Source: Candidatus Hydrothermarchaeum profundi
GTDB taxonomy: Archaea; Hydrothermarchaeota; Hydrothermarchaeia; Hydrothermarchaeales; Hydrothermarchaeaceae
Length of the DNA: 64,000 nt
NCBI GenBank assembly: GCA_002011125.2
Contig: MTMF02000009.1
Span: forward strand, 1,384,989-1,448,988
Direction: 5' to 3'
Each line of letters begins with the position of its first letter. The stretch's first letter is position 1. Under the pieces are notes generated by a model that worked only from the letters and a program-made list of their open reading frames with translations, was not told where the DNA came from and ran no database searches. Of the stretch, positions 57,813 through 64,000 are shown piece by piece. A program made the position numbers and the translations under genes.

Positions 57813-58142
57813 TTATTTTTTAAAAGCAAACGAAGGCAGCCATAATTTTGGCTTCTTTTTTGGATGCTCGATTTTTAGGTCTCTCAAATCTACATGGTTA
57901 TTTAAGAAATCAAAACCCAAAGGGGTGATAGTATATTTTTTAATATTTTTTCTTGAAGATTTAATAAATTTAGCTTTTTCTAATATTTTGAAGGCATTAT
58001 AAGCTTCTTTCGGATTCGCGACATATTTTCTTTTAAGAAACTCATATGGCCCGGTTTCTCCTCTTTGCGCAATTAGTATGAGAGCGCGCATTGCATTTTT
58101 TGTTAGTCTTATTTCTTCAAAGTCTTTTAATAGGTCTTTCAT
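57813..58142 (-). CDS. Hypothetical basic protein, winged-helix-like
   Basis: [21 protein letters not shown]; ATGA overlap with the aroC stop. Confidence 0.55.
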
Positions 58143-59230
58143 TCTTCTAAGCATCCTAAATATCCTGACCTAATAGCATGATCAGTTAAGACTATGGCAA
58201 GCATAGCTTCACATACAGGCAGGACCCTAGGGACTATACAAGGATCATGACGTCCTTTGATTTCTATGGTTGTATTTTCCATTTTCTCTAAATCCACAGT
58301 CTCCTGTCTTTTTGCTATTGAGGAAGTTGGTTTTACGGCTACTCTGCATATTATAGGCATACCATTCGATATTCCTGCTTGTATCCCACCTGAATTATTT
58401 GTCTTTGTTCTAACCTTTCCATTTTTGATATAGAAGGGGTCATTGTTTTCAGAGCCTTTTTTAAAAGCTACTTTAAAGCCGGCTCCAATTTCAACGCCTT
58501 TTACTGCTCCCACGGACATAAGTGCTTTAGCTATATCTGCATCGAGTTTATCAAATACCGGCTCTCCAAGCCCCGGTGGAACATTCAAGGCTATTAGTTC
58601 TATAATACCCCCAACAGAATCTCCTTCTTGTTTCGCCTTAATTATTTCCGCTTCCATTTTCTTGGCAATTTCTAAATTTGCGCAACGGAGTGGGTTTTTT
58701 GTAGCATTTTCTATGATATCACTCACAGAAACTTCTCCTACTTCGACTCCGTGAATGTTTACTGTGTGACTTAAGATTTCTATCCCTATACTCGCAAGCA
58801 ATTTCTTCGCTATAGCTCCGGCAGCTACTCTTCCAACGGTCTCTCTGCCAGAGTATCTTCCTCCTCCTCTCCAATCTCTATGTATATACTTTACTGCGTA
58901 GGTATAATCACCATGACTTGGTCTTGGTTTGTTTTTAATTTCTAAGTAGGGAGTAGAATCAACATCTTTATTTTCTACTATCATGGCAATGGGCATTCCA
59001 GTAGTTCTCCCTTCAATAATTCCGGAAAGGATTCTAACTTTATCCTCCTCAGATCTAGTAGTAGTAAGTTGGCCTTGCCCAGGGCGTCTTCTATCTAATT
59101 CCTTCTGTATATCTGTTTCAGATAATTCTAATCCTGGAGGGCACCCATCTACTACCACCCCCACGGCTAAACCATGCGACTCGCCGAACGTAGTTATTCT
59201 GAAAATCTCTCCAAAAGTATTTCCGGGCAT
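58139..59230 (-). CDS. aroC: Chorismate synthase
   Basis: [35 protein letters not shown]. Confidence 0.97.
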
Positions 59231-59277: not shown

Positions 59278-59934
59278 ATGGAGTTATTTAATCTGAAGAT
59301 TATAGTCGGTTTGATAGTACTAGTCTATTCATCATATCTGGATTTGAAATACAGAAAGATTGATGATAAAGCTTGGATTTCTTTGATATTACTTGGTGTC
59401 TCCTTTTTCATTTTTGAGTATATGCAACAAGTGATGGCTATAAAAGATTTTGTGATATCTATTACTATTACTGCAATTTTATCGCTAGCACTATATTATC
59501 TCGGAATACTTGGTGGGGGGGACGTTAAAATATTAATAGGTATTTCGGCTTTAATACCAAGACAATTTCAGTTCTCAATTTTTCCCTATTTTTCGTTAAC
59601 GGTTTTCGCTAATGCGGTTGTTATTTCTTCACTTCTCCCTCTCCTATTTTTTGCGTATAACATTAGAGAAATTAAAAGGGTGAGAAATGTTAAAGATTTT
59701 CTTGTACTTTTTTTAGGTTATAAAAAAGACGGAAGTAAAGTTGGAAAGCATGAAACGATAATCGCAAAAAATGGGAAATATAATTTCCTACTTCGAGGGA
59801 AAAATATTAAGTTAGGTGAAAAGGCTGAAGGGGAAGTATGGGTTTCTCCAGCTATACCTTTTATAATTCCTATCACAATAGGGTTCGTGATCGCATCTGT
59901 AGGAGGAGATATATTAAGCCATTTAATGAGTTAA
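59278..59934 (+). CDS. Prepilin/preflagellin peptidase (A24, FlaK/PibD-like)
   Basis: SYLDLKYR and GGGDVK catalytic Asp motifs; [10 protein letters not shown]. Confidence 0.88.
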
Positions 59935-59945
59935 GGAGGTAGAGT

Positions 59946-60704
59946 ATGAAACAAGAGGCGTATATTTTACTCATTCTAGTAGCTATTACTTTCGTTGAGT
60001 ATGTATTTGTATATGTAAATCCAGGACATGGCATAGTTTTAGCGTTGCTTCTAACGATAGTAATCTACATCTCAGTTTCTATACCAAAGGAGGAAACCCC
60101 TCTAACTAGAGCGGCCGAGTCACTTGCATTAATACCCTTGTATGTGTTATTTACTGCTTCACTGCCATGGTTTTTCATAAAACAGAGTTATTTATTGCCT
60201 GCCGTGTATAGCATTATCATGGCATTATGCCTCTGGCATATATATGAGAAAAAGATTGACGCAGCACGTTTGGGTTTAATAAAAAAAAGATTCTGGACAT
60301 TTGTATTAGGAGGTGCTATCGTTGGCTGTATTACGGGGTCAATTGAATACATCATCCTCAAACCTGAAGCGCCCTTACCCCAATTTGAGTTTATTTACCT
60401 CTTGCGTGATTGGATCTACATGACTTTTTTTGTAGGTTTGGGTGAGGAGGTACTGTTTAGGGGAATAATCCAAACAGACCTTCAAGACTTACTTGGCAAT
60501 CAGAAAGGGTTACTTTTAGCGGCAGTCCTTTTTGGGATCATGCATTTAACTTGGAGATCAGTACCCGAATTGTTGTTTGCTGCTTTTTCTGGTTACCTCT
60601 TAGGTTACATATTTTATAGAACAAAGAGTTTAATCATGCCGATCTCGCTTCACGGAGTAAATAATACCATACTTGTAAGTATCTTACCTTATCTCGTGAG
60701 GTAA
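59946..60704 (+). CDS. CPBP (CAAX/Abi) family intramembrane metalloprotease
   Basis: EEVLFRG, LFGIMH, HGVNN motifs; multi-TM. Confidence 0.9.
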   Translation: MKQEAYILLILVAITFVEYVFVYVNPGHGIVLALLLTIVIYISVSIPKEETPLTRAAESLALIPLYVLFTASLPWFFIKQSYLLPAVYSIIMALCLWHIYEKKIDAARLGLIKKRFWTFVLGGAIVGCITGSIEYIILKPEAPLPQFEFIYLLRDWIYMTFFVGLGEEVLFRGIIQTDLQDLLGNQKGLLLAAVLFGIMHLTWRSVPELLFAAFSGYLLGYIFYRTKSLIMPISLHGVNNTILVSILPYLVR

Positions 60705-60707
60705 AAG

Positions 60708-61496
60708 ATGGCTGTAGGATTAAGAATAGACGTTGACAGTATAGCGGATGCTAGGAGTCTACCGTTAGTTACACAAATCCTAGAAGAAATAGGCCTTAAG
60801 GCAACTTTTTTCATCTCTGTGGGTCCTGATAAATCTGGAAGAAACCTGCCTAAATATATGTGGAAACCATTAAAAGAAAAATCGTTAGCAGTCAAGAGAT
60901 ATGGTATTAGAAATCTTTTACTAGGGCTTACTCCTCTTCCTCCAAGGATAGAGGATATAAATATGAAATTTATAATAAAAAAAGGCCATGAAGTTGGGCT
61001 CCATGGTTATGATCATTACGAGTGGATCAAAAGACTGCAATATATGGATTGGAAAGAGATTAAATTAAGGATTAATAAAGGGATAGATATTTTTAGAAAA
61101 ATGTTTGGATTCTCTCCACGGAGCTTTGCATCTCCCGGCTTCTATATTACCGAGGAGTATTTTAAGGCTCTTGAGGTTTTTAGATTTAACTATGCAAGCG
61201 ATGTGATCGGTGCTAACCCTCATTATCCTATGCTTAGCGATAGGAAATTTAGAACCTTACAATTGCCGGTAACCATTAAATCTATTTTCGAGTTAAGACA
61301 GTGCGGAAAATCTGATAAAGAAATACTCAGAATGTTTAAAGAAAAAAAAGATAATTATGCTACATTTTATTTTCATCCTTCTTATGAGGCTTTATTTGAA
61401 AGAGATATCTTAAATAAAATCTTAGAATTAGACTTAGACTTTATAACCTTGGGGGAGATTGCGAGGGATTGGATTGAAGATTCTCCAAATATATGA
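60708..61496 (+). CDS. ArnD-like polysaccharide deacetylase/deformylase (CE4/NodB fold)
   Basis: VGLRIDVD..ATFFISVGPD.SGR matches the ArnD N-terminus; HEVGLHGYDH; FASPG. Confidence 0.8.
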   Translation: MAVGLRIDVDSIADARSLPLVTQILEEIGLKATFFISVGPDKSGRNLPKYMWKPLKEKSLAVKRYGIRNLLLGLTPLPPRIEDINMKFIIKKGHEVGLHGYDHYEWIKRLQYMDWKEIKLRINKGIDIFRKMFGFSPRSFASPGFYITEEYFKALEVFRFNYASDVIGANPHYPMLSDRKFRTLQLPVTIKSIFELRQCGKSDKEILRMFKEKKDNYATFYFHPSYEALFERDILNKILELDLDFITLGEIARDWIEDSPNI

Positions 61497-62622
61497 ATTA
61501 GCTCCAACAGGAATAAAAGCCTTCAATGGCATAGATGTATCTATTCTTGAGATCTCTAGAGAACTAGCCAAGCTTGGCCATGATGTAACAATTTTAACAG
61601 GCAGGAGCGGCAATAATGATATAGACTCTTGTGGAGACGTAAATATTGTTCAAGTGGAATTCTTCAACCTCATGAAAAAGACATGGGATCCAGTCAATTT
61701 AAGGCTTTCACGGCAATTAATTTTCCCTCTAGCCGTATTAGGCAAGAAATTTAGAGATTTTGACATATACCATGGACATATATATGCTTCTGGATTAATT
61801 GCTTTATATTTCGGGAAAATAAATAATGGAAAAGTAGTAAATACTATCCATGGCTCGTATTATCCAATCTGGCACTTGCTAGCTTCCCCGTGGGAGTCAT
61901 TTTTTTATAAAAAGTGTGAGCGGATTTTAGCTCCATTTCTAGCGAAACATGTTGACCTGCAAATTCATACAGGCGAATATTTCGCTAAAAAAGTGATAGA
62001 GTGGGGTGCGCCTCCTAGTAAAGTTAAAATAATTAGGAATGGTGTAAATATTAATGAATTCAACAAAAAAGATTCTAAGAAGGATAAATCGATTATTTTT
62101 ACGGCAAGACGACTTGTTAAAAAAAATGGTGTAGAATACCTTTTAAAAGCTATGAAAAAGATATCAGAGAAAGTAGACTGTGAATTGTGGATTGCTGGGG
62201 ATGGGCCTGAGAGGTCATCCTTAGAGAAACTTACAGAAAGACTTGAATTAAAAAATAAAGTAGTATTTTTAGGTCTTGTGCCACATGATAAAATTCCAGA
62301 ACTTTTAGCGCAAGCTGAAATCGCAGTATTACCGAGTCTAATCGAAGCATCTAGTTTGTTTTTATTAGAAGCCATGGGGATGGGAAAGCCTATAGTAGCT
62401 ACAAATGTTGGTGATAATCAAAAGATTCTTGACGGAAGCGCAATTCTAGTGAATCCCTGCGATATCGATAGTATGGCAGAAGGTATACTAGGTATTCTAG
62501 CCGATGATAAGAGGAAGAATGAAATGAGAAAAAAAGTTTTAGAAAAAGTTAGAGGGTATACATGGGAAAAAGTCGCAAGAATGATAGAGGAGGAATATCT
62601 ACGAATAAGCAGATTAAATTAG
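61474..62622 (+). CDS. GT4 glycosyltransferase
   Basis: HGH, TIHG, IRNGV, RRLVKKNGV, GDGPE, PSLIEASSLFLLEAM; TTG start. Confidence 0.9.
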   Translation: MKILQIYELAPTGIKAFNGIDVSILEISRELAKLGHDVTILTGRSGNNDIDSCGDVNIVQVEFFNLMKKTWDPVNLRLSRQLIFPLAVLGKKFRDFDIYHGHIYASGLIALYFGKINNGKVVNTIHGSYYPIWHLLASPWESFFYKKCERILAPFLAKHVDLQIHTGEYFAKKVIEWGAPPSKVKIIRNGVNINEFNKKDSKKDKSIIFTARRLVKKNGVEYLLKAMKKISEKVDCELWIAGDGPERSSLEKLTERLELKNKVVFLGLVPHDKIPELLAQAEIAVLPSLIEASSLFLLEAMGMGKPIVATNVGDNQKILDGSAILVNPCDIDSMAEGILGILADDKRKNEMRKKVLEKVRGYTWEKVARMIEEEYLRISRLN

Positions 62623-63452
62623 TAATGTGGGTAGGGTCGTCTGCGGTTATTTCATTGTTCTTTGTAGATGTATTTTTGAGCGCTCCTACGATATTTTCTG
62701 TAAGTTATCTACAATCAAATGGCGTATACTCTTGGCTAATATTTCTCCTATGTATATTTTGGATTTTTCTTAAAAAAGATGAGATAATAAAAAAAATAAA
62801 GTGGGATCGACTTATTCCTTCAATCCCCTTCTTTGTTTTAGGAGTTATAATTCTTGCAGTATCCTTAGGTGTAAGCGAATTTATAAGCACCTTTTCTTTT
62901 AAGGTACTCGCATTAATACTATCATATACAGCAATATTTGCGATATTCTTTGGCTCAGCGGCAATAGTACCATTAGCATTGATAGTGATCTATGGTTTTT
63001 CTATGTCTTTCCCATTTCTTATATCCTTTTTCTTAGAAAAATATTATACCTCTTTATCGATCTGGTTAACGGCTAGCATATTCAAAATTTTCGGAATATT
63101 GCCTTTGGTAAGCGGCCAGAACTTCGAGTATTTTTCAGTTTCAGGAGATAAAATCTCTGTGCTAATAGATTCTAGATGCTCTGGGACAGCTTCGCTAAGT
63201 GTTTTTATGGCTTTATTTTTTTTAATGGTATTAGATATACGCCTTCCAACTAGAAAAGCCGTACGTCTATTTCTATTTGGGATTACCGGCACCTTTATGC
63301 AGAATATTTTAAGATTGCTTGTCGTCCTGTTTGCGGGATATTTATATGGATATAAAGCTCTATTGTCGGCCCATACATATGCAGGCTATATTATTTTTGC
63401 TGTTTGGTTCTCTACTTTTACTGTGATATACTTAAGAGAGGCGAAAACGTGA
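62562..63452 (+). CDS. Archaeosortase/exosortase family transpeptidase
   Basis: Multi-TM; Cys (DSRCSG), Arg (NILRL) and His (AHTYAG) triad; start uncertain (ATG 62562, ACG 62601 or ATG 62625). Confidence 0.85.
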   Translation: MGKSRKNDRGGISTNKQIKLVMWVGSSAVISLFFVDVFLSAPTIFSVSYLQSNGVYSWLIFLLCIFWIFLKKDEIIKKIKWDRLIPSIPFFVLGVIILAVSLGVSEFISTFSFKVLALILSYTAIFAIFFGSAAIVPLALIVIYGFSMSFPFLISFFLEKYYTSLSIWLTASIFKIFGILPLVSGQNFEYFSVSGDKISVLIDSRCSGTASLSVFMALFFLMVLDIRLPTRKAVRLFLFGITGTFMQNILRLLVVLFAGYLYGYKALLSAHTYAGYIIFAVWFSTFTVIYLREAKT

Positions 63453-63817
63453 ATAGAGATATAATAAGGATATATGCCATGGTAGGACTTCTTTTACTCT
63501 CGTACTATGTACTTCAGGACCCAATATTTAGGGAGTTTGATGTATCTGAGTATGAGGGAGAAGAGAAGGCCTTCTATTTCACGAAGATAATTGATTCTGG
63601 GAGTTCCTATACTGCTGAGATTGGATTTTCAAAGAATAACATCTCTGTAATTTCTGATGCAAAATTAAGTATTGGAGAAGTGGTAAGCTTTTATGGTGTT
63701 ATAAATAATGGCAGGTTATATGTTGAAAAATACAAGGTGCACGAGCATCCCTATATGGTGTACTATCTCTCAATAGTGGGATTATTTTTGTTCATAATAC
63801 TTATTTCTAGGAGGTAA
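63449..63817 (+). CDS. Small membrane protein with OB-fold-like core and C-terminal TM-RR tail
   Basis: N-terminal hydrophobic helix, GEVVSFYG beta core, HPYMVYYLSIVGLFLFIILISRR; GTGA overlap with the sortase stop. Confidence 0.6.
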   Translation: MNRDIIRIYAMVGLLLLSYYVLQDPIFREFDVSEYEGEEKAFYFTKIIDSGSSYTAEIGFSKNNISVISDAKLSIGEVVSFYGVINNGRLYVEKYKVHEHPYMVYYLSIVGLFLFIILISRR

Positions 63818-63820
63818 TAG

Positions 63821-64000
63821 ATGCCAGACTGGGTTTCGCATTTGCTATTAGGATATTTTGTAGCAACTCTATTAGGAATAAAAAATAAAAAGCCTGTATA
63901 TATTGGGGTGCTTTTGCCCGACGCTTTCAAGATATTTATACCGTTGATGACTCTTTTAGAGATTAATAATACGATATTAATGAACTTTTTTGCCCCTTAC
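63821..64000 (+). CDS. Membrane-bound metal-dependent hydrolase (YdjM-like), partial
   Basis: Manual translation MPDWVSHLLLGY..IGVLLPD; runs off the window. Confidence 0.7.
   Translation, partial: MPDWVSHLLLGYFVATLLGIKNKKPVYIGVLLPDAFKIFIPLMTLLEINNTILMNFFAPY

Follow-up and report, generated by a model that had tools for sequence, protein, structure and literature searches.

An archaeosortase subfamily co-inherited with a GT4 glycosyltransferase, an ArnD-like deacylase and a CPBP protease, and a possible amino-glycolipid acceptor for its cargo

To what does an archaeosortase transfer its cargo, and could the genes beside it make the acceptor? The question is raised by the end of a 64,000-nucleotide stretch of the Candidatus Hydrothermarchaeum profundi genome (contig MTMF02000009.1 of GCA_002011125.2; G000:C9:1384989-1448988), called the window here. 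Passages of a 2023 preprint by the discoverer of the family call the acceptor of exo- and archaeosortases, as well as one-step transpeptidation, still open (10.1101/2023.06.07.544157). From position 59278 to the 3′ end of the window we found seven open reading frames (ORFs), all on the plus strand and spaced by +11 to −61 nucleotides; a 363-amino-acid ORF on the opposite strand (58139-59230) precedes them. This ORF map confirms the original prediction of seven co-oriented, abutting or overlapping genes, whose names agree with Pfam and NCBIfam profiles, the one called YdjM-like being weakly supported. The end of the window is the enzyme half of a dedicated archaeosortase system, in which the sortase, a CPBP protease, a deacylase and a GT4 glycosyltransferase are co-inherited.

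Co-inheritance of the sortase with three enzyme genes

The sortase gene (62562-63452, plus strand) encodes 296 amino acids with about 6-8 transmembrane helices (about six hydrophobic segments were counted). The protein scored 56.3 bits against PF09721 (cut-off 25.7) and 44.5 bits against TIGR04178 (cut-off 23), and it is the only exosortase-family protein encoded in the genome. As predicted, the catalytic residues are intact: Cys206, Arg251 and His271 stand in the alignment columns in which 53 of 62 family members have Cys-Arg-His and 2 of 62 have Ser-Arg-His. In a subclade of the Hydrothermarchaeales, the catalytic Cys is replaced by Ser (PSSG or PSAG for CSG), and the Arg and the His are kept (alignment A1; loci L015, L016, L017, L019, L020 and L030; protein P0003).

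The placement of the sortase in an Art or Xrt subfamily, for which profile searches had been suggested, succeeded in part. The nearest curated subfamily was ArtC (TIGR03762) and not ArtA, but with 42.6 bits against a cut-off of 100 the protein reached neither this nor any other curated subfamily. Twelve relatives scored 34-56 bits on the ArtC model and were likewise under its cut-off, whereas true ArtC genes in 151 genomes of the Methanosarcinales order scored 136-446 bits. Canonical ArtC above the cut-off was present in 52 of these genomes and the new subfamily in 14; four genomes had both, at different places. The new sortase is therefore a paralogous, uncurated subfamily. A word-based homologue search with the sortase gave two proteins, and the wider set was obtained by a profile search and genome scans. 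An eight-member profile run against 1.84 billion proteins gave 54 cluster representatives at E≤1e-30 and 855 at E≤1e-3; by the stricter count, the family is small.

The original prediction had named the adjacency of the GT4, ArnD-like and sortase genes across archaeal genomes as a test beforehand. We searched 19 sortase loci from named genomes within the fetched DNA. Seven of them hold the deacylase (36-40% identity to the window protein) and the GT4 (42-49%), and six of these seven also hold the CPBP protease (54-57%). The seven loci come from ANME-1/Methanophagales, Methanoperedens, Methanomethylovorans, Methanolobus and another Methanosarcinaceae genome. Two more loci end at a contig edge inside the triad of CPBP, deacylase and GT4 genes. 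The remaining 10 loci are without triad genes; 7 of these are cut a few hundred bases from the sortase or to <3.5 kb. Copies adjoining the deacylase in other lineages are 52-61% identical for CPBP and 42-53% for GT4. Adjacency was thus kept in distant lineages, with the CPBP gene as an additional member.

We then compared the distribution of the genes over the 151 Methanosarcinales-order genomes, at E≤1e-20 for the deacylase and E≤1e-50 for the sortase subfamily (next best 6e-15). The deacylase occurred in 13 genomes and the sortase in 14, and every deacylase genome had the sortase (13/13). In 11 of these 13 genomes both genes lie on one contig, 0.5-6.1 kb apart; the 14th sortase genome is small, and its sortase stands at a contig start. 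None of the 48 genomes with canonical ArtC only had the deacylase, and the four of 52 ArtC genomes that have it all carry the new subfamily.

Among 41 relatives of the window genome, 8 had a strong sortase match and 8 the deacylase; both occurred in 7, often on separate contigs. The triad is intact on another contig in two Hydrothermarchaeales genomes (G006 and G011), and in G006 a cassette of cargo genes follows it directly. A third genome (G015) has a strong sortase and no deacylase match; its CPBP and GT4 orthologues stand at contig ends, which would fit a deacylase gene lying in an assembly gap. The co-occurrence pattern covers two phylum-level groups. We conclude that in Hydrothermarchaeota, Methanoperedens, ANME-1 and Methanosarcinaceae this sortase subfamily is accompanied by the CPBP, deacylase and GT4 genes.

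Candidate cargo and gene fusions

In the methanogen-related loci, one to three copies of a three-gene cassette adjoin the sortase. The first gene encodes a membrane protein of ~230-240 amino acids with a helix at each end, the third a protein of ~130-160 amino acids with an N-terminal helix, and the middle gene a secreted protein of 154-1169 amino acids, which is the candidate cargo. Its C-terminus consists of [P/I]EF-x-x-G/A, ~17-20 hydrophobic residues and then Arg/Lys; 12 of 13 tails read PEF and one IEF. The search for a common C-terminal signal of motif, transmembrane helix and basic residues, which had been proposed for the proteome, thus had a positive outcome. Neither the cargo nor its two partners belong to any Pfam family, and leads for them in the Atlas were weak. 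The cargo is presumably a secreted protein with PEF-x-x-G/A, transmembrane helix and basic tail that is encoded together with two conserved bitopic partners. In Methanomethylovorans (L032, 5082-12849) three copies of the cassette are arranged around the sortase, and their cargo proteins have 549, 247 and 154 amino acids.

The cargo candidate of the window genome (C9:1554373-1555317, 314 amino acids) ends in VPEFSLGMG...LLRR and lies ~105 kb from the sortase, with a 133-amino-acid partner beside it and a 238-amino-acid partner 5 kb further. It was the one convincing hit among six matches of a PEF-like regular expression in this genome; a looser tail screen gave many ordinary membrane proteins. 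MinD-like and KaiC-like ATPases, a histidine kinase and response regulators surround the cassette.

In G006 and G011 (L050 1584-7675 and L049 3149-7552), a set of genes divergent from the triad recurs; it encodes a CWB2-domain protein, a secreted beta-propeller/DUF11 protein and an ATPase of the MinD/ParA type, joined in G006 by an A24 peptidase, a response regulator and a histidine kinase. The window genome contains two 101-amino-acid ORFs, 1.5 kb apart (C9:939598-939903 and C9:941089-941394), with identical first 30 and last 45 residues, which suggests a local duplication or repeat. At G000:C18:2946-5454, several neighbouring ORFs of the minus strand encode proteins that finish with a transmembrane helix and basic residues, among them one that has a long stretch of prolines; the contig is only 37 kb long, and they could belong to a mobile or viral element.

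Gene fusions join members of the set. Protein P0048 (697 amino acids; a cluster of three members from two sources) is a fusion of GT4 and sortase. Two other proteins, P0073 and P0132 (clusters of one and four members), are fusions of sortase and CPBP protease, and the CPBP part of P0073, its C-terminal half, is 44% identical to the window CPBP over 247 residues. JGI, ENA and Logan are the sources of the members of the fusion clusters. A P0048-type gene is found on a metagenome contig of 6.6 kb (L064), which carries, on one strand, partner, PEF cargo, partner, deacylase, GT4::sortase fusion and CPBP protease. Taken together, these arrangements indicate that the sortase, the CPBP protease, the deacylase, the GT4 and the PEF cassette are very probably one system that processes PEF-tailed cargo.

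A possible amino-glycolipid acceptor

Neighbourhood, phyletic pattern and fusion connect the sortase subfamily with exactly two cytoplasmic enzymes, both of which have known relatives that make sugar lipids with an amine. The CE4-type deacylase (60708-61496, plus strand, 262 amino acids) has no hydrophobic segment and neither signal peptide nor transmembrane helix. Its best NCBIfam match was ArnD (NF011923; 116.8 bits, E 1e-33, profile positions 2-264 of 294), at a score under the equivalog cut-off of 382 bits. The homology to ArnD runs from end to end: residues 3-251 aligned with residues 4-265 of 299 in the structure 8t0j_A (E 1.5e-22), sharing the blocks VGLRIDVD, HE.GLH..DH and Q.PVT. This is the only clear solved homologue, the next being a peptidoglycan deacetylase at E 8.7e-4. 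The deacylase also matches DUF2334 (50.4 bits, cut-off 26), presumably the same family as COG3233.

The glycosyltransferase (61459-62622, plus strand, 387 amino acids; GT-B, retaining) matches Glycos_transf_1 with 121 bits and Glyco_transf_4 with 77 bits, and has one borderline internal hydrophobic segment and none at the N-terminus. Its nearest solved relatives are the GlcNAc transferases MshA-like 7qsg and BshA 5d00 and the phosphatidylinositol mannosyltransferases PimA/PimB'. The third triad gene (59946-60704, plus strand, 252 amino acids) encodes a CPBP (Rce1-like) glutamic intramembrane protease, which scored 74.4 bits against PF02517 (cut-off 22.4) and reached none of the curated Mrt subfamilies (best 60.2 against 435 bits). 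The strings EEVLFR, FGIMH and HGVNN, which we take to be the CPBP protease motifs, are readable in it.

We hypothesize that these enzymes supply an acceptor. At the cytoplasmic face, the GT4 would put an N-acyl-hexosamine onto the head group of a membrane lipid, and the deacylase would free the amine of the sugar. After movement of this amino-glycolipid to the outer leaflet, the sortase would cut the cargo at the PEF motif via a thioester at Cys206, and the lipid amine would resolve the thioester, so that the cargo would be left amide-linked to the glycolipid. The CPBP protease may then remove or trim the membrane remnant. The conserved set has no polymerase, no flippase of a known family and no GT-C enzyme, and the sortase and the CPBP protease are therefore the sole candidate users of the product. 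An amino-glycolipid is favoured because the set holds no other user of a lipid-linked amino sugar and because a fusion of GT4 and sortase makes little sense for a polymer pathway. We also count in its favour that ArnD acts on a lipid-linked amino sugar. With the amino-glycolipid as the covalent acceptor of the cargo, the mechanism as a whole appears to us finely balanced, tilting slightly towards doubt. That the sortase uses the amine of a de-N-acylated hexosamine-lipid, made by its own GT4 and deacylase, as the nucleophile on the acyl-enzyme is possible, with doubt outweighing confidence. It would constitute a self-contained archaeal glycolipid anchoring and the first exo- or archaeosortase with adjoining acceptor genes, in a six-gene operon that includes the cargo.

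Several points weigh against the amino-glycolipid as acceptor. All five steps above are our inference, and the system is known here from its genes. The conserved set contains no flippase for the proposed movement of the lipid. The family scores of the GT4 and the deacylase are all far under equivalog cut-offs, so that donor, acceptor and acyl group are not fixed by family. No cargo protein matched a PEF-CTERM model in an NCBIfam scan at E≤0.01, and the cargo signal is therefore defined by motif and architecture alone. In one Hydrothermarchaeales genus (G013, G030 and G034) the deacylase and GT4 genes are scattered, the sortase has Ser for Cys, and a CPBP homologue was not found with the window query at E≤1e-10. 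Moreover, the co-occurrence counts overstate the number of independent events, since related genomes are not independent. Finally, bacterial exosortase loci with GT4 and deacetylase genes are usually taken as exopolysaccharide loci (PMC1569441).

The last point leads to an alternative in which the GT4 and the deacylase make or modify a glycan, on the cargo or in a surface polymer, and the sortase only cleaves or anchors via another lipid. EpsH loci are reported to be enriched in glycosyltransferases of group 1 and polysaccharide deacetylases and to include fusions of EpsH with CAAX-type proteases (PMC1569441). Models of the XrtA system do respond to the proteins studied here, the GT4 scoring 87.3 bits on TIGR03088 and 72.1 on TIGR04063 and the deacylase 24.8 on TIGR03006, but the cut-offs of 409, 442 and 276.2 bits were far from reached. 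Glycan genes also occur near the sortase: GT2 and DUF2304 genes in G006 and G015, epimerases and GT4s in a Methanoperedens locus, and AglB and Wzx genes downstream in the present genome. However, the conserved core has a single glycosyltransferase and no polymerase, exporter or oligosaccharyltransferase, and the GT4::sortase fusion is hard to explain for a polymer pathway. The cytoplasmic deacylase, too, is far nearer to ArnD than to polysaccharide deacetylases, both among solved proteins (E 1.5e-22 against 8.7e-4) and by family model (116.8 against 24.8 bits). We regard a purely glycan-directed role as unlikely, if a serious contender.

The GT4 and the deacylase might instead make a cationic amino-glycolipid of the GpgSDF/HexSDF kind that serves the sortase, the CPBP protease or the partner proteins of the cargo as a non-covalent co-factor or lipid environment. 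The same pair of enzyme types yields free GlcN-PG in the gpgSDF system (PMC12713373), the match of the deacylase to DUF2334 fits such a product, and strict co-occurrence indicates dependence, not covalent use. On the specific models the scores were low (deacylase on GpgD NF053788 17.5 against 280 bits; GT4 on GpgS NF053787 40.2 against 480). Free cationic lipids would be expected in genomes without the sortase too, yet the deacylase was never seen without it in the 13 genomes, and both the GT4::sortase fusion and the six-gene contig with cargo point to a tighter coupling. Such a non-covalent role of the lipid is in our view improbable.

Returning to the covalent amino-glycolipid, we asked which lipid could carry the sugar. 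In the window genome, which is 97.65% complete, no match to the PIG-L family (PF02585) was obtained. A phosphatidylserine decarboxylase was not found in it either, and hence an amine donor of the ArtA type is not evident. Two inositol-1-phosphate synthase genes are present, one at C9:1477759-1479528 beside a 197-amino-acid CDP-alcohol transferase and ~29 kb from the sortase, the other at C9:880456-882205 beside a CDP-alcohol transferase ORF of 450 amino acids. The two enzyme types together make an inositol lipid possible, and archaetidylinositol is one possible acceptor among several.

For bacteria, the link of exosortases to CAAX-like proteases, group 1 glycosyltransferases and deacetylases has been in print since 2006 (PMC1569441). 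What is new here is the archaeal subfamily with its fixed core of ArnD-like deacylase, GT4 and CPBP protease, the strict pattern of co-occurrence, the fused genes and a compact operon that includes the cargo. In the literature searched, Haft et al. 2012 and supplements excepted, no description of the archaeal module was found. The acceptor question becomes tractable in a small gene set with one or a few dedicated cargo genes. If the proposal is true, an amino-glycolipid would be a third type of acceptor besides ethanolamine lipids and lipid II, and a similar idea that was put forward for PEP-CTERM loci of bacteria (PMC7468200) would gain support. Among the carriers are methane-cycling archaea (Methanoperedens, ANME-1 and Methanosarcinaceae), for whose ecology surface proteins matter.

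Neighbouring genes and known systems

Which of the remaining genes belong to the system? The original prediction had counted all seven, and three of them do not hold their place. The first gene of the run (59278-59934, plus strand, 218 amino acids) encodes a prepilin/preflagellin-type A24 aspartic peptidase (PF01478, 51.8 bits against 26.5; Arc_PepC_II, 46 bits), one of two in the window genome, and stays under the cut-off of the FlaK equivalog NF040695 (112.7 against 330 bits). It was absent from all 19 sortase loci, and the only other genome with an A24 gene near the module was G006 (48% identity, 5.5 kb from the triad). We rejected it as a core part; it is probably not core to the sortase system.

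The two genes behind the sortase accompany it only in two Hydrothermarchaeales relatives, G011 and G015. The first (63404-63817, plus strand, 137 amino acids; 122 from a GTG at 63449, which stands behind GAGAGG and is the likelier start) encodes a small protein with an N-terminal transmembrane helix, a short beta-rich domain and a C-terminal transmembrane helix ending in RR. It had no Pfam or NCBIfam match; the Atlas lead was OB_2TM_halo, which 16% of the proteins in the top cluster carry (score 0.91). In both relatives a homologue immediately follows the sortase. The tail of H-x-x-P, helix and RR, which has no PEF, is kept in the three genomes; in the relatives another ~15 residues follow the helix. 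The small protein accompanies the sortase in this lineage only and could be its partner or a second substrate.

The second gene (63821-64000 and on to 64282, plus strand; 153 amino acids in full, L002 5810-6271) encodes a membrane protein called YdjM-like. The full ORF scored 23.4 bits on YdjM (PF04307; E 4.5e-5), under the cut-off of 29, and the name is weakly supported for this reason; Zn_dep_PLPC matched at E 0.003. Its counterparts behind sortase and small protein in G011 and G015 share 47-48% identity with it, and it too is a companion confined to this lineage.

Just past the window the co-oriented run continues straight into a glycan cluster (L002 6297-16438; C9:1449296-1459437). The cluster comprises two SDR epimerases/dehydratases, a 678-amino-acid STT3/AglB-like transferase with a C-terminal MG2-like stretch, a DUF1616-like protein of 132 amino acids, GT4s, a Wzx-type flippase and two methyltransferases. 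This continuity allows the reading that the GT4 and deacylase genes are the first genes of an N-glycosylation or surface-glycan cluster and stand by the sortase by chance or via glycoprotein substrates. The best NCBIfam match of the STT3 protein, an 'archaeosortase A system-associated' oligosaccharyl transferase, speaks for such a connection, although at 84.8 against 450 bits. STT3 and Wzx homologues were, however, found in 0 of the 19 named-genome sortase loci and in 0 of 8 further sortase loci, whereas the triad recurs. Triad and sortase also co-occur on separate contigs, and the fusions speak against chance adjacency. We therefore rejected the triad as a part of the AglB cluster; a chance association of this kind is extremely improbable and is already contradicted by the locus, co-occurrence and six-gene contig data.

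Two other neighbourhoods were recorded. In Methanoperedens (L025 10872-13763, L026 10939-13830 and L027 942-3832), the sortase gene is immediately followed by genes for a full-length DUF1616 protein (328 bits), for another CPBP protease, which is more distant, and for an ABC permease resembling FtsX/LolCE; the permease could be a component for lipid or protein extraction. A GT2 and a DUF2304 membrane protein recur near the sortase or the triad in G015 (L017 1106-2130), G006 (L015 5638-6986) and G011 (L049 12547-13373), in G015 between the sortase and the small protein with two transmembrane helices.

How does the system compare with known ones? In the synthesis of glycosylphosphatidylinositol (GPI), a GT4 (PIG-A) and a de-N-acetylase (PIG-L) act before a Cys transamidase exchanges a C-terminal signal for the glycolipid. 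The original prediction had drawn this analogy, and the logic of GT4, deacylase and Cys enzyme is indeed the same. The analogy is loose, however: the genome has no PIG-L gene, and the Pfam matches of the GT4 (E≤0.01) did not include a PIGA domain. GPI carries the protein on ethanolamine phosphate, not on the glucosamine amine, and the fold of the transamidase is unrelated to that of the sortase. [quoted passage not shown]

In the gpgSDF and hexSDF systems, genes for a cytoplasmic GT4, a cytoplasmic deacetylase and a membrane protein lie side by side and give a hexosamine-lipid, which is GlcN-PG for gpgSDF; the GlcNAc-PG deacetylase GpgD is assigned to COG3233 (Table 2, PMC12713373). The enzyme pair is of the same type here, and the deacylase has its DUF2334 match, but the third gene encodes a CPBP protease instead of a UPF0104 flippase, and the lipids are archaeal. 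The deacylase is likewise homologous from end to end to ArnD of the L-Ara4N modification of lipid A (8t0j). The partner glycosyltransferase is a GT4 here and not an ArnC-type GT2, and the conserved set is without an ArnT-like transferase.

In the T9SS, the Cys transpeptidase PorU amide-links the new C-terminus of the cargo to a glycolipid, and VimE has been proposed to free the amine of the linking sugar; the authors of that 2020 paper speculate that exosortase loci make a similar compound (PMC7468200). The sortase fold is unrelated, however, and the T9SS acceptor is lipopolysaccharide. There VimA adds an amino acid to the freed amine; the present module showed no gene of the VimA/FemAB kind. 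The EpsH (XrtA) loci of the PEP-CTERM system share the exosortase, group 1 glycosyltransferase, polysaccharide deacetylase and CAAX-protease-like fusions (PMC1569441). The present system is archaeal, with a compact fixed core that has no chain-length or export genes and an ArnD-like deacylase in place of the XrtA-system type, and its one or few dedicated cargo genes each come with two conserved partners.

The ArtC/PEF-CTERM system (Haft et al. 2012, as cited in PMC5244752 and PMC9723798) resembles the present one in two ways: ArtC is the best-scoring curated subfamily for the sortase and its relatives, and the cargo tails, although they matched no PEF-CTERM model at E≤0.01, have PEF, a transmembrane helix and basic residues. 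It differs in the scores of 34-56 bits against 100, in the presence of ArtC as a separate gene in 4 of the 14 subfamily genomes, and in the 48 ArtC genomes without the new subfamily, which have no deacylase match. In the ArtA/PGF-CTERM system of Haloferax volcanii, an archaeosortase is linked to the amine-lipid enzymes PssA and PssD; artA is syntenic with pssA and pssD in Methanosarcina, and the amine of archaetidylethanolamine is modelled to resolve the Cys thioester (PMC7157517). Here the sortase subfamily and the signal are others, the sortase is linked to a GT4 and an ArnD-like deacylase instead, and the proposed amine would be on a sugar. By analogy, the system would work like ArtA with PssA/PssD, PorU with the Wbp/Vim sugar or sortase A with lipid II, and it is a member of none of these families.

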